DNA of 41,648 bases. It comes from a virus (lineage: Duplodnaviria; Heunggongvirae; Uroviricota; Caudoviricetes). Both the position numbers and the translations under genes were made by a program. Below are positions 19,704-29,758 of the stretch, one piece after another. Location of the stretch: the IMG/VR virus record IMGVR_UViG_2609459832_000005. One strand, given 5' to 3'. Positions within the stretch are counted from its first letter, which is position 1; each line of letters starts with the position of its first letter. The notes beneath the pieces are model-generated. The model searched no databases, was not told the DNA's origin, and worked only from the letters and a program-made list of their open reading frames with translations.

Positions 19704-20066
19704 TCAGTAACGACCGCGCCTTCCGGTAATTTCATACCGGCAAATACCGGACAGCCCGGGGATCGTTATCTGCAGCTGGTTAGCCAGGGAGTTAATCTCA
19801 GCGACCAACACTGGCTTCGTATAGCGCCATGCCGCCAGCCCTTGTCCACAGAAGCTCGCCATATCTTTTTTCTGATCAAACTCATGACACTTCATATTGA
19901 GCTGCGCACTTAAGCTGTTGCGATGCTGAAGTTCTCCGGTGAAGTAGTCATCCAGGACTTTATAGGCTGCATATTTAAATCCGGGGTTTAGCCATGCTGC
20001 ATAATCATAAGCAACAAACTTCCCGCCATATGTTCCACCGTGTACACCGCGCTCAGTAAAAACCAC
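19704..20066 (-). CDS. KilA-N-like domain protein (possibly N-terminally truncated remnant)
   Basis: GTYGGKFVAYDYAAWLNPGFKYAAYKVL aligns by eye with the KilA-N core of the 265-aa protein in this window ([25 protein letters not shown]); lies between Rz and cos. Confidence 0.4.
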   Translation of the reverse strand: MVFTERGVHGGTYGGKFVAYDYAAWLNPGFKYAAYKVLDDYFTGELQHRNSLSAQLNMKCHEFDQKKDMASFCGQGLAAWRYTKPVLVAEINSLANQLQITIPGLSGICRYEITGRRGRY

Positions 20067-20087: not shown

Positions 20088-20555
20088 CTACTTAATGCGC
20101 TGGGTGCGGATATATTCCTGCGCCCCTTCCAGTTGCTTCTGCATCGTCATCAACCGTTCTCTGAGGGTGAAATAATCCCGTTCAGCGGTGTCTGCCAGTC
20201 GGGGGCTGGTTGCATTATCCATGCTGGTGGGTCCGGTGGCTTCACGCACGGCTGCGGAGCAACTGGCATTGACCCGCAGGCGCTTACGACCAGCGGCAAC
20301 ATCAGCGCGCAGAGTTTCATTTTCAGTTTTCGCATCGGCTAACTCCTTCGTGTATTTTGCATCGATCGCAGCAACATCACGCTGACGCTGCTGCATGTCA
20401 GCGATGGTGGCGGTCGCCTGCTTCAGCTCACTGACTTTTTTATCACGCTGTTCTTTGTAGGCGATGGCGTTATCACGGTAATGATTGACCGCCCACGACA
20501 GGCAGACGATGATGCAGATAACCAGAGCGGAGATAATCGCGGTTACTCTGCTCAT
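20088..20555 (-). CDS. Rz: Spanin inner-membrane subunit Rz (i-spanin)
   Basis: Likely start [23 protein letters not shown] (N-terminal TM anchor) then coiled-coil periplasmic domain; directly after the endolysin; contains embedded Rz1. Confidence 0.8.
20150..20335 (-). CDS. Rz1: Spanin outer-membrane lipoprotein Rz1 (o-spanin), embedded in Rz
   Basis: 61-aa ORF wholly inside Rz in another frame; lipoprotein signal with lipobox (LPLVVSAC), proline-rich mature part. Confidence 0.75.
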
Positions 20556-21049
20556 TGTTGCCCCCACAAACAGACTTCACGCTCAATCTCACGACGAGTC
20601 AACAGGCCTTTCCATTGCTTACCGCCAGCGTATGTCCAGCGACGTAGCTGGTCACATGCGCCTTTGATATCGCCCTGGTTTATTTTGCGAAGAAGCGTCG
20701 ATGTTCTGAAATTGCCAGCACCCACGTTGTAGACGAACGAGTAAAGAGCGCCGCGCGTTGTTTCCGGTATATCGACTTTGATGTACGGGTTAATTTGTCT
20801 GGCGACCGTGGCAAGGTCTTTATTCAGGAGGGCTTTGCATTCTGCTTCGGTATACGTTTTACCTAGCATGATGTCTTTTCCGGTGTGTCCGTGACATACA
20901 GTCCATACGCCAACGATATCTTTGTATGGTATGTAGCTGACACCTTCCAGGCCATCGTCACCACTCGGACCAGTGATGAGCACAGACGCTATGGCAACAG
21001 CCCCACCACCAATAGCAGCAGCAACAGCCTTGCGTAATGATGGCGACAT
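20552..21049 (-). CDS. R: SAR endolysin (T4-lysozyme-like muramidase, phage 21 R-type)
   Basis: 165 aa; N-terminal Gly/Ala-rich signal-anchor-release segment ([20 protein letters not shown]) followed by lysozyme catalytic region (..EG..Y.D..G..T..HG..); recalled near-identity to phage 21 R. Confidence 0.9.
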
Positions 21050-21264
21050 TATTCACCTCTCGCAGCCTTACGCTTATCTTCTTTAATCTTGAAATAAAGG
21101 TTTGTCAGATACGTCAGCAAGCCAAATACCAGACTACCCAGCACACCTATTGCCGCCCACTGTGAGGGCGTGACTTTATCGAGCAACTGTAAAAACCAGT
21201 ACCCGGCACTACCTGCTGAGGTGCCATAGGCGACACCCGTTGTTAACTTATCCATGGATTTCAT
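21049..21264 (-). CDS. S: Pinholin (phage 21 S-type holin)
   Basis: 71-aa protein with two TM segments ([24 protein letters not shown].. / [22 protein letters not shown]) and charged C-terminus; recalled close match to S21; preceded by GAGGTGGGG SD. Confidence 0.85.
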
Positions 21265-21301
21265 AACCCCACCTCGCAGATGCGGGTGCTGTGTAATGGA
21301 A

Positions 21302-21326
21302 ATAAAAAGGCCACCTACGTGGCCAC
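21302..21326 (-). terminator. Rho-independent terminator between methyltransferase gene and S
   Basis: Minus-strand hairpin GGCCAC-gtag-GTGGCC (plus 21309-21324) followed by UUUUU (plus A-run 21304-21308). Confidence 0.5.
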
Positions 21327-21330
21327 CAGA

Positions 21331-22383
21331 TTATTTCCCCACCAGCTCGTTTATCTCTTTCACTGTCTGGTTAAACCGCTCTGACTCAAGCTCAACACCT
21401 AAGGCCCGACGCCCCAGCGCCATTGCTGCTTTTATTGTGGAACCGGATCCCATAAAAAAATCAGCAACCAGATCACCAGGTCGACTACTGGCATTGATTA
21501 TTTGCCGGAGCATATCCGCAGGTTTCTCACACGGATGTTTACCCGGGTAGAACTGAACGGGTTTATGCATCCAGACATCGGTATAAGGCACGGAGACTGA
21601 TACGGAGAAATAGCGCCGGAGAGATTTAAACTCATCCAGCAATTCAGAATATTTGCGATTCAGTGAATCATAAGATGCCACCAGCTGGTGGTGTGGTTGT
21701 TCCAGTTGTTGTTCCTGAAACTTCTCTGCCGCTATACGGGAAAACAGTGCCTGTAACTTCCGATAGTCAGCCTCATTCGGCAACTGCCACTGACTGGCAC
21801 CAAACCAGTGGGAAACCATATTTTTCTTACCTGTGGCTTCGGCAATTTGTTTTGCCGTTATACCCAGTTCGGCACGAGCATCCCTGAAATACGATATCAG
21901 CGGTGCCATTATGTGCTGTTTGAGTTCCCTTTCTTTTGCCGCATAGCCGTCACTTTTGCCGCGATATGGCCCCTGGTAATGTTCAGCAAACAGAACGCGC
22001 TCTGTGGCAGGAAAATATGCGCGCAGACTTTCTTTATTACACCCATTCCAACGTCCGGACGGCTTCGCCCAGATGATATGGTTAAGCACGTTGAAACGTT
22101 CACGCATCATGATCTCAATATCAGATGCCAGGCGATGTCCACAGAACAGGTAAAGGCTTCCGGCTGGTTTCAGTACCCGCCAGAACTGGGCCAGACAGTA
22201 GTCCAGCCACTTCAGGTAATCTTCGTCCCCTTTCCACTGATTGTCCCAGCCGTTGGGCTTCACTTTGAAGTACGGCGGATCGGTAACAATCAGATCAATG
22301 GAATCATCAGGCAAGGACTGAATAAAATGCAGGCAATCAGCGTTGATTAAATCAACACTGTTTATTTTTACAGTATTTTTCAT
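21331..22383 (-). CDS. DNA amino-methyltransferase (beta-class N6A/N4C MTase), orphan
   Basis: 350 aa; motif IV TDPPY near the N-terminus and motif I FFMGSGST near the C-terminus (permuted beta-class order); no adjacent restriction endonuclease candidate. Confidence 0.8.
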   Translation of the reverse strand: MKNTVKINSVDLINADCLHFIQSLPDDSIDLIVTDPPYFKVKPNGWDNQWKGDEDYLKWLDYCLAQFWRVLKPAGSLYLFCGHRLASDIEIMMRERFNVLNHIIWAKPSGRWNGCNKESLRAYFPATERVLFAEHYQGPYRGKSDGYAAKERELKQHIMAPLISYFRDARAELGITAKQIAEATGKKNMVSHWFGASQWQLPNEADYRKLQALFSRIAAEKFQEQQLEQPHHQLVASYDSLNRKYSELLDEFKSLRRYFSVSVSVPYTDVWMHKPVQFYPGKHPCEKPADMLRQIINASSRPGDLVADFFMGSGSTIKAAMALGRRALGVELESERFNQTVKEINELVGK

Positions 22384-22533
22384 GGATCAGTAAGCGTAAC
22401 TCTGGTAGGCTCACTCTGCTTTTGCGCTAAAGCAGTGGGCCGTGGTTCGCTTGTGACCAGTAAGCATGAGCGAATGGCTGGCAGGTGCTACCAACACCCA
22501 CCAGCCGCCCATTTTCACAGCAGGAAACCGCCA

Positions 22534-22761
22534 TTACTGGCAGCGTCTGAATTTATTCCCGTACCCGCCGTTATCCTTCGCCAGACCCGCCAGAACTAAC
22601 TGAGTCAGTATTAACTGGCACCGGGCTTCGCTTACTCCGGTAGTTCTCGTCATCATGCGTGGCGTTACCCACTTGTCAGCAGGTAAGAAATGAAGGACTG
22701 CGGCGGCGGTTTCTGTCATATCTTGCTGTTTTAGCATGTCTTTTTCCCTTCTGGTTAACAT
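22534..22761 (-). CDS. Hypothetical small protein (possible winged-helix)
   Basis: 75-aa ORF in the late-operon orientation upstream of the methyltransferase; no recognised motif. Confidence 0.3.
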   Translation of the reverse strand: MLTRREKDMLKQQDMTETAAAVLHFLPADKWVTPRMMTRTTGVSEARCQLILTQLVLAGLAKDNGGYGNKFRRCQ

Positions 22762-22859
22762 GACATACCAATAACTCTTGTCTAAAAAGCCAGCAAGATA
22801 AAAAGTCAGTATTCACGACCACCAGCGTGTTTACTGTACTGCACCAGTTTTACAGGTAC

Positions 22860-22884
22860 AAAAAAACCGCTCGACGGCGGGTTT
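22860..22884 (-). terminator. Candidate intrinsic terminator (tR'-like) on the late strand
   Basis: Minus-strand short GC stem CCGCC..(loop)..GGCGG region (plus 22867-22880) followed by 7 U (plus A-run 22860-22866). Confidence 0.4.
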
Positions 22885-23037
22885 AAGCTGTGTGGCGAAG
22901 TAACCACTCTTAACACAGTAAACGAGAAAATGCGGACCGCGTAAGTTTTTTTTGATAGATTATGCATATGCAACGAACCCAGGATCATTAACAAATCACA
23001 ACCCATTGATTCAAAAGGATAATAAAGGGTAATTTTA

Positions 23038-23970
23038 ATGACTACGACAGCCACTTCCGCGCCACTAACTAAACAAAAAAAAATGCGTATCGGTTTCTTC
23101 CAAAGCTCCTCAGGAACGAAGTCAACTACATCAAATGCACAACTTGCATTTGACAACATGTATACAACCATTGTTACACCTTCGCAAAATTCTTATACCG
23201 CTGAGTTTGATAAGAAAAAATTAAAGATTGTATTCTTAGAAAAAGACGCACAGGCGGAGTTCTATTTTGGTTATCTATCATGCTCTCGTGATGGTTTCCA
23301 CTTACCTTATATTGGTGATGAAAATTGGGATGAGCACAATATTCCGTTAGATGATAAAAAATATATAGTCGAACGCACTTATTTTATTTACTACTATAAG
23401 AAAGACATTCTTGTTTTATCTCAAAATCATTTAGGACCTAAAGTTTCCGATTTAGCATTTCTTTTATTCAATTTTTCTGAAGAAAACAAACCTGTAGCGT
23501 TTGAGGCAATTTGGAAAAAAGAAAGTGTAAAAGAACTACTTGAAACAGGAAGCACTTTACGTAGCTGTGAAATTACACTCGCCGCTCCACGTAATTTTAG
23601 CGCAACGGATTATGACCTTTCGAATTCATTTTCCAAAAGTATGATTGAAATGATGGCTGGGATGGGCGGTTCGCATTTAAAACTATCACTTAGAGGTAGA
23701 GCATCGCAACGTAAATTAATCCGTGGTTATCTCAGTGATGAAGTAAAAAGTGGAATAAAGGAATTAATAGAAAAAGTTCCTCACTTATTACGTAAAGCTA
23801 ATGTCACTGAACCTAAAAATACTCATTCAAGGAGTCTTCTCAATCAAGTTCTGATCAGTGAAAAAAACATTAACACAAAAGATGGCTACGCAAAAGAAAC
23901 AGATGTGCGTACTGCCTTGATCAGTGCTAAAATTGAACATGGTCAGTATTTAAAGCAATATGAAATCTGA
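23038..23970 (+). CDS. AT-rich cargo protein A, 310 aa, soluble; candidate sensor component of a two-gene exclusion/defence cassette
   Basis: Long ORF on the strand opposite to all surrounding phage genes; markedly lower GC than flanks; no NTPase or nuclease motif recognised; weak local resemblance (LGPKVSDLAFLLF) to a lambda RexA segment as I recall it. Confidence 0.6.
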   Translation: MTTTATSAPLTKQKKMRIGFFQSSSGTKSTTSNAQLAFDNMYTTIVTPSQNSYTAEFDKKKLKIVFLEKDAQAEFYFGYLSCSRDGFHLPYIGDENWDEHNIPLDDKKYIVERTYFIYYYKKDILVLSQNHLGPKVSDLAFLLFNFSEENKPVAFEAIWKKESVKELLETGSTLRSCEITLAAPRNFSATDYDLSNSFSKSMIEMMAGMGGSHLKLSLRGRASQRKLIRGYLSDEVKSGIKELIEKVPHLLRKANVTEPKNTHSRSLLNQVLISEKNINTKDGYAKETDVRTALISAKIEHGQYLKQYEI

Positions 23971-23984
23971 TCTTATTTTTAAGG

Positions 23985-24437
23985 ATGATGATTATGCTTA
24001 TTAAAGTTTTAATTAACATAGTTATCAGTGGGCTGTTAGCTTGGGTGCTTGGGAAATACCTAGCGCCTATGGCTCACTCTGATATCTTAAGTACAGCCGG
24101 AGTGTTATCTACGGTGGCAGGCATTTTGTTTGGTTTTGTATTGGCCGCTATTTCCATCTTCAGTTCTGCAAGTTCAAGTACTGATGGAATTATTTTTGCT
24201 TTAAAACAAAACAAGATTTTACCTAAAATTATTCATAACCTGTTATCTACGGGAGTTACCTTAATATTAGCATGTATTTTCCCGCTGATAGCAATGTTTA
24301 TAAATGAAAAAATCACCATTACCTCTGTAAGACTTGATTTCGCCCTAACCTTATATGGTTTCTCGACCCTGATCGTATCAATAGTTTCATTTGCAAGTAC
24401 CTGGAGGAAAATAAACTGGATATTACCCCACATATAA
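23985..24437 (+). CDS. AT-rich cargo protein B, 150-aa integral membrane protein (about 4 TM helices); candidate membrane effector
   Basis: Four hydrophobic stretches (VLINIVISGLLAWVLG; VLSTVAGILFGFVLAAISIF; LLSTGVTLILACIFPLIAMF; LTLYGFSTLIVSIVSFAS); 14 bp downstream of protein A, co-oriented; size and topology like lambda RexB. Confidence 0.65.
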   Translation: MMIMLIKVLINIVISGLLAWVLGKYLAPMAHSDILSTAGVLSTVAGILFGFVLAAISIFSSASSSTDGIIFALKQNKILPKIIHNLLSTGVTLILACIFPLIAMFINEKITITSVRLDFALTLYGFSTLIVSIVSFASTWRKINWILPHI

Positions 24438-24440
24438 TAT

Positions 24441-24466
24441 TAAGCAGGTGCAAGCACACCTGCTTA
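24441..24466. terminator. Hairpin between convergent cassette and Q genes
   Basis: Perfect 9-bp stem AAGCAGGTG / CACCTGCTT with 6-nt loop; no clear U-tract on either strand, so function as terminator is inferred from position only. Confidence 0.35.
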
Positions 24467-24480
24467 TCCAAACCAAGATA

Positions 24481-24843
24481 TTAATCCATATCTAAGCTAA
24501 CATTTAGAATAGCTAGACAACCTTCTATAAATCCCTCAGCCATCTGTATCTCAATGCGTATTATTTTCTCATCCTTTTTACGAGCTTTAGCGAGCTTTCT
24601 TTTAGAGATACCGTATAGGTAATGGGCAACAAGAAGCGAGTGTTCTTCAGGTCTTTTTTGCTTTAGACGAGCAAGACAACCTTCAATAATTAATGCATCA
24701 CTATCTGAACAAGCCTGACGTGTTTTGCTTGTATAGGGAAGAAGCCCTTTAAACCCAGCAGCTATAGGCGAATAGTCTACCCCAGAACTATCACTCGCCG
24801 CCCATGCACCCCAACGATCCAGAACCATCTGAATATCACGCAT
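24481..24843 (-). CDS. Late-gene antiterminator Q (small Q family, QuuD-like)
   Basis: Likely start MRDIQMVLDRWGAWAA.. (120 aa), which matches my recollection of E. coli QuuD; Cys-containing region SDSDALIIEGCLARLK; last gene of the early-right cluster. Confidence 0.75.
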   Translation of the reverse strand: MRDIQMVLDRWGAWAASDSSGVDYSPIAAGFKGLLPYTSKTRQACSDSDALIIEGCLARLKQKRPEEHSLLVAHYLYGISKRKLAKARKKDEKIIRIEIQMAEGFIEGCLAILNVSLDMD

Positions 24844-24860
24844 CAACTTTCTCCACAAAA

Positions 24861-25856
24861 TCAGGCCAGCACGCCAGTTGCCAGCGCGCGATCGATAAAA
24901 CGAAATATCAGCTCCAGCTGGGAGCCATACTTCTCTTCAAATGCCACGGTATCCGCATGCAGCTCGTCGTGATGCTTTCTGCACAAAGGCAGCACGAAGA
25001 GGTCATGCGCTTTTGTACCTATTCCACCCTGACCGTGGCCTATCAGGTGGTGGGGATCATCAGCAGGCTTTCCACAACATGCACACGGCTGCGTCTTAAC
25101 CCAGCGCGTGTACTTTTCGTTAACCCAGCGGCGACGTTTTGGGCGTAACATAAAAGACTCCGGCGACTCCGGATCCACTTTCAGCGCCAGCACCTTTTTC
25201 GCTTTATTCTGGATGATGCTGGTGGCAGGAACCGAAGGCACAAGGTCACTTTCCCGGGTAACAGACGGCACAACAGGCTTCGGTAATCTAAGTGCCTTAC
25301 GGGCTGCACTTTCCGGTAAGGCATCCGCCAGGTCATTACGAATCAGCCACCAGCACAGTTCCGGCATTGTCACAACGTGACTGTCATCAAAACCGAGATC
25401 CCGACGCACAACAGACAACACCCAGCGGGCACAGTTATCCGTTGCCATTGATTCCAGCCGTTCCGTGAACTGATCACGCAGCTGGTTATCGCAGTGCCAG
25501 CACAGACGGATTGCGCCCGGAGCGTGTCGCATTGTGGTTATGTTCTCGCTGTGCCAGTCGGAATGAGGCCACTGGCAGCCTTTTTCACGAAGTAACCAGC
25601 TTTCAAGACATTCCACGCCACCAGCACGACGGATCACTGCCTCATTGCGGAACACGGCCCGAACGGCAGGATCATCCGCCAGCGGTTGTGATGCCGCCGG
25701 AACGGCACCACTGGCGAAAGATGAATAACGTTCCGGCTCAGGCTCCAGCAGGACACGCCCCTGCATAAACAGGGGCATCAGCTCTGAACCTGGCCTGAAC
25801 AATACGATCCCCATACGCGGGGCAATTTCAGGAGTCAGTAGTGCTCTCACGGTCAC
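24861..25856 (-). CDS. DUF968-like protein with C-terminal HNH-like Cys/His motif
   Basis: 331 aa; C-terminal CACCGK..HHLIGHGQGG..CRKHHDELH cluster; nin-region position upstream of Q. Confidence 0.55.
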   Translation of the reverse strand: MTVRALLTPEIAPRMGIVLFRPGSELMPLFMQGRVLLEPEPERYSSFASGAVPAASQPLADDPAVRAVFRNEAVIRRAGGVECLESWLLREKGCQWPHSDWHSENITTMRHAPGAIRLCWHCDNQLRDQFTERLESMATDNCARWVLSVVRRDLGFDDSHVVTMPELCWWLIRNDLADALPESAARKALRLPKPVVPSVTRESDLVPSVPATSIIQNKAKKVLALKVDPESPESFMLRPKRRRWVNEKYTRWVKTQPCACCGKPADDPHHLIGHGQGGIGTKAHDLFVLPLCRKHHDELHADTVAFEEKYGSQLELIFRFIDRALATGVLA

Positions 25857-25857
25857 C

Positions 25858-26655
25858 TCAATGAACGGTATCGAGCAGCTTTAACAGCTCAGGGAATCGG
25901 GATTCGAAGAAATGCGGCTGCGTCTCGCGCGGATTTGCGGGACTGGTGATGTTCTTGCCGAACATGCAGCCTTTCGCTGTCAGCGACCAGAATTTTTTGA
26001 TGTTGTTAATCGCGGTACGGCTGTATCGTTCGCGCTGCTCGACGATCCCCAGCTTCACCATCTGGTGATATGCCTGATTAGCCGTCAGGCGGATACCATA
26101 CTGTTTCAGCAGTGCACTCAGTGACAGTGTCGGGCGACTTGAGCCATCGTGTGCATCAGCAGGAGCATCAATGGCATAGCGCGGTGCCAGATTCGGTAAG
26201 CCAACAGCCTCCTGAAGCTTCTGACAGGCTCCAAGCACTGATGAGTTAGACAGGTTTAATTCCCGGCGCATAAAGTCCAGCAGGATCACGCCAGCCTGCA
26301 TCTTGTCAGCAGCCTGCCCGGATAATTTTTCCGGTGTGCTGGTTACCATATCGAAAGTACGGATCACCTTCAGATGGAATGACGGGCTGATCCACATTGC
26401 ATAGGCATACACCAGTTCTTTGCAGACATACGTCCCCTGGTTATTTCCGCCACGAATAACGTTAACTGGCTCTATATTGACCGAGTTGCAAATCTGCAAC
26501 TCGCTTATTAAACGTTCAGTTTGCTCATTGCGGAGCCAGAATGCAGGCTTATGCTTATCCAGAGAACCGGCAGCCCTGTGTAGATCGTTCAGGCTGTAAC
26601 GCCCATAAGCATCACGACGAACTTCAATACCATCAATGACCATCAGATTATTCAT
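25858..26655 (-). CDS. KilA-N domain protein (antirepressor-like)
   Basis: N-terminal KilA-N signature (..[28 protein letters not shown]..). Confidence 0.7.
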   Translation of the reverse strand: [265 protein letters not shown]

Positions 26656-28929: not shown

Positions 28930-29758
28930 GACGATGCCCTCCGCTGATATTCAGGAGACGGTGAATATGAAAATTAGCCTTATCCGCCAGACGAATACGT
29001 TCAGCTTGCAAGTTAAGAAGGGTTTCTACCAGAACCTGATGTGCCTGCGGATCCGAAAGAGTTACCTTGCGCAGAGCACGTAGTGCAGTTGTTACATAAC
29101 TGAGTTTATGTAAGTCTTCATCATTCAGACGAGTGAGGGCTGGGACAGTAGCCATGATGGCAGCCTCCTTGATCGGTGAAATACTTCCACCACCGGAAAC
29201 GCCAATTTCGCTGGTGGTGAACTGAACGGGGTTGGCGTAACCGGTGATCAAGGAAACCGGCGCATCTTTCGATGCCCCCGCCCAGCCCACCATAACTTTG
29301 ATGTGAGCAAATGCGGACGATAAAAAAGACGCTGGCGCGTCATATATCGCCTTGATCAATTCCAGGACGCCAATCCCGGCACCCGCTTTATAAGGTGCCT
29401 GAACAGTGTAACGTCCCGGAATGGCAGAATCAATGTGCTGGTGGTCCTTCACACTCAACAAAATCACGCCTGAATTTCCACAAAGGACTAAAGCACTCAT
29501 GCGGGTAGTCTTTGCGAAGATAGATAACGCGCTGTGTTTCTGGCTCCCAACGAATAACATGAACATAAAGTCCTCTTCCGTCACGAAACCAGCGGTTAAG
29601 TTCCTGCACAACTCGCCCCCCACAGTCAGGTAAAGTTCTCTGTGGTTACTTACAGCCAGGTGATTTGGTAATCTGCATTCATGCCGTAACAACAGGTGTT
29701 CAGCGACGCTGACCACCAGCTGTTGCGACAAACGGTTATTTGCCGTTAAACTGTTCAT
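28922..29758 (-). CDS. Hypothetical protein (replication-region gene of unknown function)
   Basis: 278-aa ORF between the CII-like gene and the O-like gene; no Walker motif; function not recognisable. Confidence 0.45.
   Translation of the reverse strand: MNSLTANNRLSQQLVVSVAEHLLLRHECRLPNHLAVSNHRELYLTVGGELCRNLTAGFVTEEDFMFMLFVGSQKHSALSIFAKTTRMSALVLCGNSGVILLSVKDHQHIDSAIPGRYTVQAPYKAGAGIGVLELIKAIYDAPASFLSSAFAHIKVMVGWAGASKDAPVSLITGYANPVQFTTSEIGVSGGGSISPIKEAAIMATVPALTRLNDEDLHKLSYVTTALRALRKVTLSDPQAHQVLVETLLNLQAERIRLADKANFHIHRLLNISGGHRHA

Follow-up and report, generated by a model that had tools for sequence, protein, structure and literature searches.

An antisense gene cassette between a Q-type antiterminator gene and its predicted late promoter in a lambdoid virus

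The 41,648-nucleotide (nt) DNA of the virus IMGVR_UViG_2609459832_000005 (Caudoviricetes), referred to here as the window (the whole stretch that was analysed), carries a gene for the late antiterminator Q that is separated from the lysis genes by positions 21265-24480. This interval holds a pair of open reading frames (ORFs) on the plus strand and, on the minus strand, a small ORF of 75 amino acids (aa) and an orphan DNA methyltransferase gene, which raised the question of where the late promoter PR', at which Q would act, is located. Our analysis pointed to a PR' on the far side of the plus-strand cassette, about 1.5 kb from Q, with the cassette lying between the Q stop codon and its cognate late promoter. 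We consider this quite likely, and the estimate applies to the explanation as a whole, comprising a modular late region, an antisense cassette in a recurrent slot and the mechanism proposed below.

The predicted late promoter unit and its link to Q

A conserved core was found by aligning the DNA between the reverse-strand genes that follow Q (the cargo) and the next terminator in five phages with a similar small Q, and it was independent of both the cargo and the downstream genes. Every locus aligned on this core showed a layout consisting of an A-tract, ~6 nt, the palindrome CGCGGTCCGCA, 10 variable nt, a hexamer, the core itself, aCTtcGCCAC and an intrinsic terminator. The unit was unique in the window, with zero copies expected by chance, and its core lay 1,566 nt from the Q stop codon. 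The elements were assigned as follows:

22902-22953, minus strand: predicted late promoter PR' unit, from conservation and homology to 933W/Sakai Sp5
22946-22953, minus strand: A-tract, UP-like, at about -38 to -45, from conservation
22939-22944, minus strand: weak -35 element TTACGC with an 18-bp spacer, by homology transfer
22931-22941, minus strand: GC palindrome CGCGGTCCGCA, candidate Q-binding element, from conservation
22915-22920, minus strand: predicted -10 element TACTGT, from conservation
22902-22914, minus strand: conserved core GTTAAGAGTGGTT, from conservation
22908-22910, minus strand: predicted transcription start, transferred from the Sakai mapping

The linkage between Q and this unit held in both directions. 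Among 80 IMG/VR viral contigs with a Q 74-99% identical to that of the window (the Q-first set), 75 had enough sequence, and about 72 of these carried GTTAAGAGTGGTT on the Q strand, downstream of the gene: 27-46 nt from the Q stop codon in 14 loci and 719-1709 nt from it in 58. Scanning of viral contigs for the PR' motif (the motif-first set) gave 118 loci, and this Q was found upstream on the same strand in all 104 that had enough upstream DNA (34 without cargo and 70 with cargo). In the cargo-less relatives the unit directly adjoined the Q stop codon, and in the others it was displaced by cargo. The contiguous form was also present in named phages, i.e., several Stx2a phages, 1720a-02 and PhiR5_1. 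The hexamer upstream of the core conformed to nAnnnT in 118 of 118 motif-first loci, with T as its first base in 89 and the form CAGTAT in 29; because this pattern with a variable interior is what a -10 element shows, the hexamer was read as such.

Canonical Q cassettes have PR' right after Q: the -35 element of phage 21 starts 7 nt past the stop codon, and 933W is arranged likewise. In the window, no PR' unit directly follows the Q stop codon. A promoter directly after Q or in its 3' end (24440-24500) was nevertheless considered, from which polymerase would cross the cassette antisense in a noncontiguous operon like that of phi80 tai. The initial annotation had allowed for such antisense transcription from 24440-24480, the -10-like strings TAATAT and TATTAT flank the hairpin at 24441-24466, and for phi80 the late operon has been suggested to be noncontiguous (PMC11364771). 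However, only 43 nt lay between the Q stop codon and the cassette stop codon, 26 of them occupied by the hairpin, and the consensus scan gave no promoter-like site at 24440-24500. The 3' end of Q and the nucleotides that follow it diverged freely between the window, cdtI and other alleles, and the sequence that adjoins Q in cargo-less relatives was that of window positions 22902-22953. A late promoter immediately behind Q is highly improbable.

The displaced unit could be anchored to a mapped promoter. The core TAAGAGTGGTTAC..GCCAC and its hexamer occupy 22902-22920 in the window, and an identical core was present in 933W, Sakai Sp5, DLP12 and the O104:H4 prophage. In the 933W record, pR' is given as TTTACG, 16 nt and TATCAT, directly upstream of GATAAGAGTGGTTAC; after TATCAT, 933W and Sakai continue with GATAAGAGTGGTTACATTGCCAC...AACCCGCC..GCGGGTTTTTTTGTACC. 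Sy et al. (PMC7547250) located the Sakai PR' start by differential RNA sequencing (dRNA-seq) and the 3' end of its terminator, tR', by Term-seq, 257 nt apart. Their Sakai coordinates misfit NC_002695.2, and the 257-nt distance to the terminator was used instead. Counting back from the U-tract of the Sakai terminator led to A744-A746 of the Sakai locus, which correspond to AAGA of the core.

The tR'-type terminator of the window has a stem at 22866-22878 followed by T7, predicting an uninduced transcript of about 49 nt that ends at 22860. Because the fold of the whole 57-nt transcript was no better than that of shuffled sequences (z -0.97), support for tR' comes from pattern and conservation and not from energy. 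The tR' segment was present in 3740 of 5426 complete Escherichia coli genomes.

Several observations weigh against this placement of PR'. The start at 22908-22910 was back-calculated by homology from Sakai, with a precision of +/-2 nt at best, the -35 element was poor, and no clear sigma-dependent pause element was found downstream of the predicted start. Leakage evidently occurs at the first terminator-like hairpin of 933W (+27 to +49), as the mapped RNA 3' end lies 258 nt downstream. The published '+1' of the DLP12 lysis operon, whose position was derived from a primer in Table S1 of PMC7918800, back-calculated to ~350 nt upstream of the core, which indicates that other promoters can feed such operons.

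As an alternative to a leaky proximal hairpin, the short product of 933W/Sp5 may escape detection, which bears on how tight tR' is in the window. The DLP12 '+1' was rejected as a PR' start because it refers to a different, RpoE-linked promoter. The published DLP12 regulatory fragment (-121 to +650) places it just after the nmpC start, and the Q-dependent PR' of DLP12 was apparently not placed at the core in that work. The DLP12 reverse primer of the same Table S1 had no match in BL21.

In one of its two alternatives, the initial annotation had put the late promoter beyond the cassette, ~1.5 kb from Q. The conserved unit and its homology to 933W agree with this in substance, but not with the exact site near 23000: the unit at 22902-22953 falls outside the proposed interval (22960-23030, minus strand) and inside the fragment suggested for reporter fusions (22860-23037). 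It is conceivable that the late promoter is instead the pair TTGAAT-17 nt-TTAATG (23014-22986) or another A/T-rich site on the cargo side, with the conserved unit serving only as a leader or attenuator. The region is A/T-rich (GC 0.37) and offers several -10-like strings, e.g., CATAAT at 22964-22969, and both hexamers are present, 17 nt apart (TTGAAT at 23014-23009 and TTAATG at 22991-22986). However, TTAATG lacks the -7 T and the pair was not listed by the consensus scan, in which promoter-like sites of the region were at chance level (9 found vs. 7.6 expected). Both hexamers sit in cargo-side DNA that was not conserved among relatives: upstream of the A-tract, cargo types were unrelated to each other and cargo-less loci had Q coding sequence. 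Moreover, the homologous mapped Sakai start lies in the core. We regard a cargo-side late promoter as very unlikely.

Two other readings of the unit were tried and rejected. The first transcribed nucleotides might have formed a conserved RNA hairpin (GUGG..CCAC), an idea that was discarded, as variants in loci L063, L067, L075 and L052 break pairs without compensation. A reading of TAnnnT as a pause element, with the promoter further upstream, failed because the upstream 10 nt were not conserved, and was also excluded by the nature of the DNA upstream of the A-tract, which is Q coding sequence or unrelated cargo.

Q itself matched PF06530 (E 3.7e-52, profile positions 1-118 of 118) and phrog_79. 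Its likely start is ATG 24843, giving a gene at 24481-24843 and a protein of 120 aa, in agreement with the annotation of the cdtI orthologue (363 bp). It shared 51% aa identity with QuuD, 55% with the Q of the O104:H4 prophage, 48% with Q933W and 23% with Q21, and against the PDB it matched Q21 at E 4e-4. Judged by sequence, it is a member of the 933W/DLP12 branch of the Q21/Q933W family. Four Q alleles had the same core and different palindromes, which read as follows over about -35 to -22:

933W: TTTACGATCGTAAA
DLP12: TTTACGTACGTAAA
O104:H4 and Stx2a_WGPS2: ACGCGTACGCA
window type: ACGCGGTCCGCA

The predicted helix-turn-helix regions of these alleles co-varied with the palindrome types: 933W and DLP12 were alike (IGKRLH/QKAEGI), O104:H4 had IRKELQTALGF and the window type IRIEIQMAEGF. 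Within window-type Q the helix-turn-helix was nearly invariant, although the stretch at -22 to -13, the equivalent of the Q21 binding element, varied; the palindrome was invariant. From these four alleles we infer that the palindrome (about -33 to -23) is the strongest candidate for the element bound by Q. Alternatively, the Q-binding site may be located in the shared core.

Modular late region and antisense cargo slot

The gene layout of the initial annotation was reproduced by ORF calls, Pfam and the terminator scan. In minus-strand order (5' to 3'), the genes encode a KilA-N protein, a DUF968/HNH protein, Q, the plus-strand pair, the 75-aa ORF, the methyltransferase, holin, lysozyme and Rz/Rz1. 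Q is followed by a hairpin, the low-GC cassette, an A/T-rich spacer and a terminator, then the 75-aa ORF, the methyltransferase and a second terminator. Besides the PR' unit, the features are:

25858-26655, minus strand: KilA-N protein (ORF call, Pfam)
24861-25856, minus strand: DUF968/HNH protein (ORF call, Pfam)
24481-24858, minus strand: Q ORF with the program-called start TTG 24858 (PF06530)
24441-24466, both strands: hairpin between the convergent Q and cassette (consensus scan, folding)
23985-24437, plus strand: membrane-protein ORF, 150 aa (ORF call)
23038-23970, plus strand: DUF6731 ORF, 310 aa (PF20505)
22954-23037, no strand: A/T-rich cargo-side spacer (composition, comparison of cargo types)
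22859-22884, minus strand: tR'-type intrinsic terminator (stem 22866-22878 and T-run)
22534-22761, minus strand: 75-aa ORF, phrog_331, function unassigned (ORF call)
21331-22383, minus strand: methyltransferase (PF01555)
21302-21326, minus strand: second intrinsic terminator (stem 21309-21324, then TTTTTATTT)
20088-21264, minus strand: lysis cassette (holin 21049-21264, lysozyme 20552-21049, Rz 20088-20567, Rz1 20150-20335)

The Q gene closes the nin/early-right region and precedes the lysis genes: KilA-N and DUF968/HNH come first, followed by Q and finally the holin gene. The GC content was 0.29-0.40 across the plus-strand pair and about 0.5 in both flanks. The consensus scan recovered both terminators listed initially (22860-22884 and 21302-21326), with stems at 22866-22878 and 21309-21324 followed by T-runs, in addition to the 11-bp-stem hairpin at 24441-24466, which had been overlooked. 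The second terminator, GGCCAC GTAG GTGGCC TTTTTATTT, lies directly upstream of the holin gene (-12.3 kcal/mol, z -2.4), and its counterparts are annotated as terminators in SfV and Ayreon. The holin is P21-type (PF04971, E 2e-35) and the lysozyme matched PF00959 (E 1.5e-45); lysis and virion modules were all retained. As initially stated, there were no tRNA genes (ARAGORN, whole window), and a whole-window Rfam search at gathering thresholds gave no match inside 21265-24480.

The stretch behind PR' was shared well beyond phages with this Q. SfV, Ayreon and mEp460, which have an unrelated 250-aa Q, had DNA in common with the window only from the terminator (22884-22860) onward; the shared stretch takes in both the 75-aa ORF and the methyltransferase gene as well as the second terminator. 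Because homology with these different-Q phages starts at tR', this terminator was taken as a module boundary. The module of terminator, small ORF, methyltransferase and second terminator was found in SfV, Ayreon, mEp460, cdtI and the E. coli O104:H4 prophage. By this comparison, the stretch from the small ORF to the second terminator is a widespread module of late operons and not an insertion specific to this phage. The 75-aa ORF is the first gene of the predicted late transcript. The initial annotation had counted three inserted units; only the cassette is inserted relative to cargo-less relatives, and the remainder belongs to this module.

The methyltransferase matched PF01555 (E 5e-42) and PADLOC MTase_II (E 8e-152). 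With an N-terminal DPPY at residues 35-38, a central target-recognition domain and a C-terminal FMGSGS at about 310-315, it has the beta-class motif order that had been annotated and an N6-adenine-type DPPY. A 349-aa methyltransferase that occupies the corresponding place in the O104:H4 prophage, which has the same architecture, shared 82% identity with it. M.EcoGI and M.EcoGII of O104:H4 are both 349 aa long, prophage-borne, non-specific for adenine, toxic if constitutive and silent in the lysogen (PMC5778455). By analogy, the window enzyme is probably a non-specific or low-specificity adenine methyltransferase like M.EcoGII; counting against this, the identity is 82% and not about 100%, and the O104:H4 enzyme may be either M.EcoGI or M.EcoGII. 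The consensus scan detected no promoter of its own for the gene, in line with its initial placement in the late operon. A position behind tR' without such a promoter would account for the silence reported in the lysogen and predicts expression only under Q, and the enzyme is probably made only from the Q-antiterminated late transcript.

The layout had been described as unusual, a view that did not survive comparison: the same arrangement was found in cdtI, mEp390, SfIV, vB_EcoS-716R3, DLP12, the O104:H4 prophage and most related IMG/VR contigs examined. In mEp390, SfIV and vB_EcoS-716R3, a similar small Q is followed by different reverse-strand genes. DLP12 has quuD, a reversed nmpC and essD, and its module is present in the sequenced phage 434 isolate. 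The presence of nmpC in qsr' has been known for decades. In the O104:H4 prophage, the order is KilA-N, DUF968, small Q, two reverse ORFs, small ORF, methyltransferase and tRNAs; in this prophage and in Stx2a_WGPS2, the antisense cargo lies upstream of the same PR' core. The whole 4-kb region was carried by 17 complete E. coli genomes at an identity of at least 98.6%; in E. coli NS-NP030 the identity is 99.2%.

Lambda Q is reported to act preferentially in cis, and the cassette insertion might have uncoupled Q from PR', leaving a crippled or Q-independent late operon in a defective prophage; DLP12, which is defective, has the same layout. Yet the layout is also that of phages deposited as complete genomes (cdtI, mEp390, SfIV and 716R3), the DLP12 module functions in the 434 isolate, the window keeps its full lysis and virion modules, and the region is preserved in the 17 E. 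coli genomes mentioned above. There is little to recommend the idea of a defective late operon, and we give it a very low probability.

The cargo was strongly biased in orientation. Cargo ORFs were antisense to Q in all 58 Q-first loci with displaced PR', where cargo measured about 0.7-1.7 kb, and the longest cargo ORF was antisense in 67 of 70 motif-first loci. Every cargo type began with its own GC hairpin 1-15 nt past the Q stop codon and ended at the PR' A-tract. The cargo ORFs fell into 16 clusters representing at least 13 cargo types, including:

KAP P-loop NTPase (PADLOC PDC-S20, E 1e-175)
TIR-domain protein (Pfam TIR_2, 3.7e-07; best PADLOC match the TIR-TM model, 2e-57)
three-gene set (PDC-S42)
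HNH protein (PDC-M68A)
NYN nuclease
ClpP-like SDH protease
DUF6731 pair (17 of 58 loci)

Together with nmpC in DLP12, these loci mark the Q/PR' junction as a site where antisense cargo, often defence-like, is repeatedly found. A literature search, itself incomplete, returned no description of a defence hotspot between Q and the lysis genes of lambdoid phages.

Some cargo had no Pfam or PADLOC match at all, namely 339-aa, 256-aa and 356-aa membrane coiled-coil proteins and a 93+98-aa pair; such unmatched slot proteins are candidate new defence genes. Insertion sequence (IS) elements were also seen between Q and the methyltransferase in some E. coli (ISEc53 with a ClbS/DfsB gene, and IS2; NZ_CP123332.1, NZ_CP042336.1). 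The Q-PR' slot also gathers transposable elements, as in DLP12 with IS1/IS5 in nmpC.

Chi sites (GCTGGTGG) were enriched in the window, with 18 copies vs. 1.5 expected, 13 of them on the late-sense strand; none of 100 shuffles reached 18. This fits the 'Chi-rich lambdoid phages' described in PMC12315714. Within 21265-24480, Chi was located at 21339, 21678, 22498 and 22819 (minus strand) and at 21684 (plus strand); those at 22819 and 22498 lie in fully conserved non-coding DNA on either side of the 75-aa ORF. Chi richness may help to explain the module boundaries at this place. Elsewhere in the window, a 120-aa ORF at 19704-20066 (minus strand), between the spanin genes and the small terminase gene, matched phrog_10441 (E 5e-74) and only the C-terminal part of Rha/KilA-type regulator families (phrog_129, positions 69-175 of 273); it may represent a shortened gene or an independent domain gene within the late operon. 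Rfam matches above the gathering score were a C4 antisense RNA (82 bits) and an IsrK Hfq-binding RNA (64 bits), at 29210-29297 and 29322-29398 (minus strand), side by side between the immunity region and Q.

The DUF6731 protein and its membrane partner

The cassette of the window has some moron-type traits: a drop in GC and a terminal hairpin were seen, and the promoter reached only a 9/12 consensus match. The hairpin at 24441-24466 has a perfect 11-bp stem without a T-run (-17.4 and -15.5 kcal/mol, z -3.5 and -5.0 on the two strands). It is a probable two-way insulator or terminator, forming the left edge of the cargo module; in cdtI and mEp390, the hairpin after Q is a bidirectional intrinsic terminator. 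The promoter-like site lies on the plus strand at 22995-23023, in the spacer at 22954-23037, which was not conserved between cargo types, and could serve the cassette.

The 310-aa ORF matched DUF6731 (PF20505, E 2.6e-11) and was 62% identical in aa to cdtI orf54. A word-indexed search gave homologues in Enterobacterales only, all unnamed, and a literature search found nothing specific on DUF6731. An AlphaFold model built with 27 sequences had a pLDDT of 79, and when it was compared with the PDB by Foldseek, lambda RexA (8twq) was the only match below E 1e-3 (E 3.6e-5, prob 1.0), followed by RdgC (2owl, 2.5e-3) and CENP-N (0.03). Adams et al. (PMC11077077) likewise reported RdgC and CENP-N as relatives of the RexA fold.

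The 150-aa ORF begins 15 nt downstream of the DUF6731 ORF in the same orientation. Its homologues are mostly 147 aa long, suggesting a start at 23994. The protein had no Pfam or PADLOC match, matched phrog_8552 and was 54% identical in aa to cdtI orf53; its AlphaFold model (pLDDT 85) consisted of four long helices. The top BFVD match was a protein of the uncultured siphovirus that had also given the top DUF6731 match, from which it was concluded that the pair travels together; it is kept as a two-gene unit across Enterobacterales and in this unrelated siphovirus. The next BFVD match was a 165-aa protein of Mycobacterium phage Sbash (prob 0.99). Sbash gp30/31 is a published Rex-like system, and the matched protein may be gp31.

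On balance, these models incline us, with modest confidence, towards a RexAB-type exclusion module, in which the DUF6731 protein is a candidate sensor or DNA-binding partner and the 150-aa membrane protein a candidate RexB-like effector. In Pseudomonas putida, a RexAB-type system that had been recognised from comparable similarity was confirmed by experiment (PMC12894663). Three results tell against the assignment. The RexA alignment was full-length, yet its TM score was only 0.35-0.39, placing the similarity at fold level only; the low score fits a two-domain protein with a mobile hinge and limits confidence. Comparison of the alignments of both proteins with lambda RexA/RexB by hhalign was negative (probabilities 0.4% and 0.2%), and PADLOC gave no match for the cassette or the 75-aa ORF.

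The pair could also be a RexA-like modulator of the lysis-lysogeny decision, or have some other lysogenic-conversion function. Lambda RexA biases the bistable switch independently of RexB (PMC11077077), and the missing PADLOC match would suit this reading. On the other hand, the same slot holds cargo that matches candidate defence models, and the two genes are conserved as a unit as widely as described above. A role other than exclusion is thus the less probable one, although it deserves to be kept in mind.

More speculatively, the Q-PR' junction of the QuuD/933W branch might be a dedicated docking site for antisense, terminator-insulated defence cassettes, with the DUF6731 pair as an unrecognised, sequence-divergent RexAB-type abortive-infection system and the antisense orientation being functional. 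We put this forward tentatively and think it somewhat more doubtful than not. If true, antiterminated early-right transcription past Q would silence the cassette after induction and spare the phage's own lytic growth.

Proposed mechanism and comparison with known systems

In the lysogen, PR' (start about 22908-22910, minus strand) would fire constitutively and its transcripts would stop about 49 nt on at tR' (22859-22884). The cassette would be transcribed independently from the A/T-rich spacer on the other strand and end at the hairpin at 24441-24466; with plus-strand transcription ending there, it would neither feed the late operon nor run antisense into Q. It would most likely act as a RexAB-type exclusion (abortive-infection) system protecting the lysogen. 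After induction, Q from the early-right transcript would act in trans over 1.5 kb, loading onto the polymerase at PR'; the GC palindrome that differs between alleles (about -33 to -23) is the strongest candidate for its contact. Polymerase modified by Q would then pass both tR' and the second terminator (21309-21324), transcribing the 75-aa ORF and the methyltransferase gene on its way to the genes for holin, endolysin, spanins and virion proteins. The methyltransferase would appear only at this late stage, protecting progeny DNA from restriction by methylation. As the cassette lies upstream of the predicted PR' start, the late operon would not be a noncontiguous one, and early-right read-through past Q is the only transcription that could cross the cassette.

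The late region of this E. coli lambdoid prophage is an ordinary, modular one with a modestly interesting cargo slot, and the current understanding of Q antitermination is not overturned. What seems worth keeping is the homology-anchored PR' of this Q subfamily, the antisense cargo slot and the RexAB-like assignment of DUF6731 and its partner. In this large Q subfamily, PR' cannot safely be assumed to follow Q, which affects late-gene prediction and, in Stx relatives of the same layout, the prediction of toxin expression. A survey of pR' left several non-933W types without a recognised pR' site (PMC6266700). The slot, bounded by the Q stop codon and the motif CGCGGTCCGCA..GTTAAGAGTGG, could be mined for anti-phage genes, as the P2 and P4 hotspots were. 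With the link to the RexA/RdgC fold and to a RexB-like partner, DUF6731, a family of unknown function, acquires a role that can be tested.

Among known systems, 933W/Sakai Sp5 (the source of the StxS RNA) shares the core TAAGAGTGGTTAC..GCCAC..AACCCGCC..GGTTTTTTTGTACC, the nAnnnT -10 hexamer directly upstream and a palindrome in the -35 region. The 933W unit, however, begins within Q or immediately behind it, and its palindrome reads TTTACGATCGTAAA, compared to ACGCGGTCCGCA in the window. The effective tR' of 933W lies 258 nt downstream and gives StxS, whereas the window has the proximal terminator only, without the StxS segment, tRNAs or stx.

Phage 21 (structures 6P18, 6P19 and 6JNX) shares PF06530, the geometry of Q stop codon, -10 element, start and terminator, and a short transcript of ~50 nt. 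In its record, the Q stop codon is at 1332, the -35 element at 1339-1344, the Q-binding element at 1347-1362, the -10 element at 1362-1367, the start at 1374, the pause element at 1375-1381 and the terminator at 1376-1423 (+3 to +50). The -10 element ends 35 nt after the Q stop codon in phage 21 and 38 nt after it in a cargo-less relative (L073), and the terminator ends about 46-49 nt after the start in both. Phage 21 differs in that its Q is 23% identical, its binding element is a direct repeat (ATTGAGCA AATGAGCA) at -27 to -12, its -35 element is the consensus TTGACA and Q21 adjoins the promoter; in the window type, -22 to -13 is variable and the invariant element is the palindrome at -33 to -23.

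The qsr' region of DLP12 (E. coli K-12/B; the lambda/434 qsr' substitution) shares a small Q (51% identity), hairpins, reversed cargo, the core and the terminator, followed by a P21-type holin and endolysin. It differs in its cargo (the IS-interrupted porin gene nmpC), its palindrome TTTACGTACGTAAA, an additional A/T-rich stretch of about 400 nt that separates nmpC from the core, and the lack of the methyltransferase module. The closest counterpart, cdtI orf52-orf58, shares Q, a terminator, the reversed membrane/DUF6731 pair, the PR' unit, the 75-aa ORF, the methyltransferase, holin and endolysin, with flanks 97% identical. In cdtI, the cassette allele is diverged (62% and 54% aa identity) and the post-Q hairpin has T-runs and is a typical bidirectional terminator.

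Lambda RexAB, P. putida RexABpp and Sbash gp30/31 have in common with the window cassette a ~300-aa cytoplasmic RexA/RdgC-type protein followed by a ~145-aa four-helix membrane protein; all are prophage-borne and oriented for expression independent of the lytic operons. The window pair, known here from predicted folds, has no detectable sequence similarity to them and occupies the Q-PR' slot rather than a position beside cI. The methyltransferase is comparable to M.EcoGII/M.EcoGI in length (349-350 aa), in its beta-class motifs (DPPY ... FxGxG) and in its place after PR' and a small ORF in the O104:H4 prophage, although the 18% divergence from the O104:H4 enzyme could change target recognition. 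Finally, phi80 tai/ati likewise combines an oppositely oriented defence gene with the Q-controlled late region of a lambdoid phage. The antisense gene of phi80 has been proposed to interrupt the Q-controlled operon, whereas the cassette of the window lies upstream of the predicted PR' and would not be crossed by PR' transcripts.

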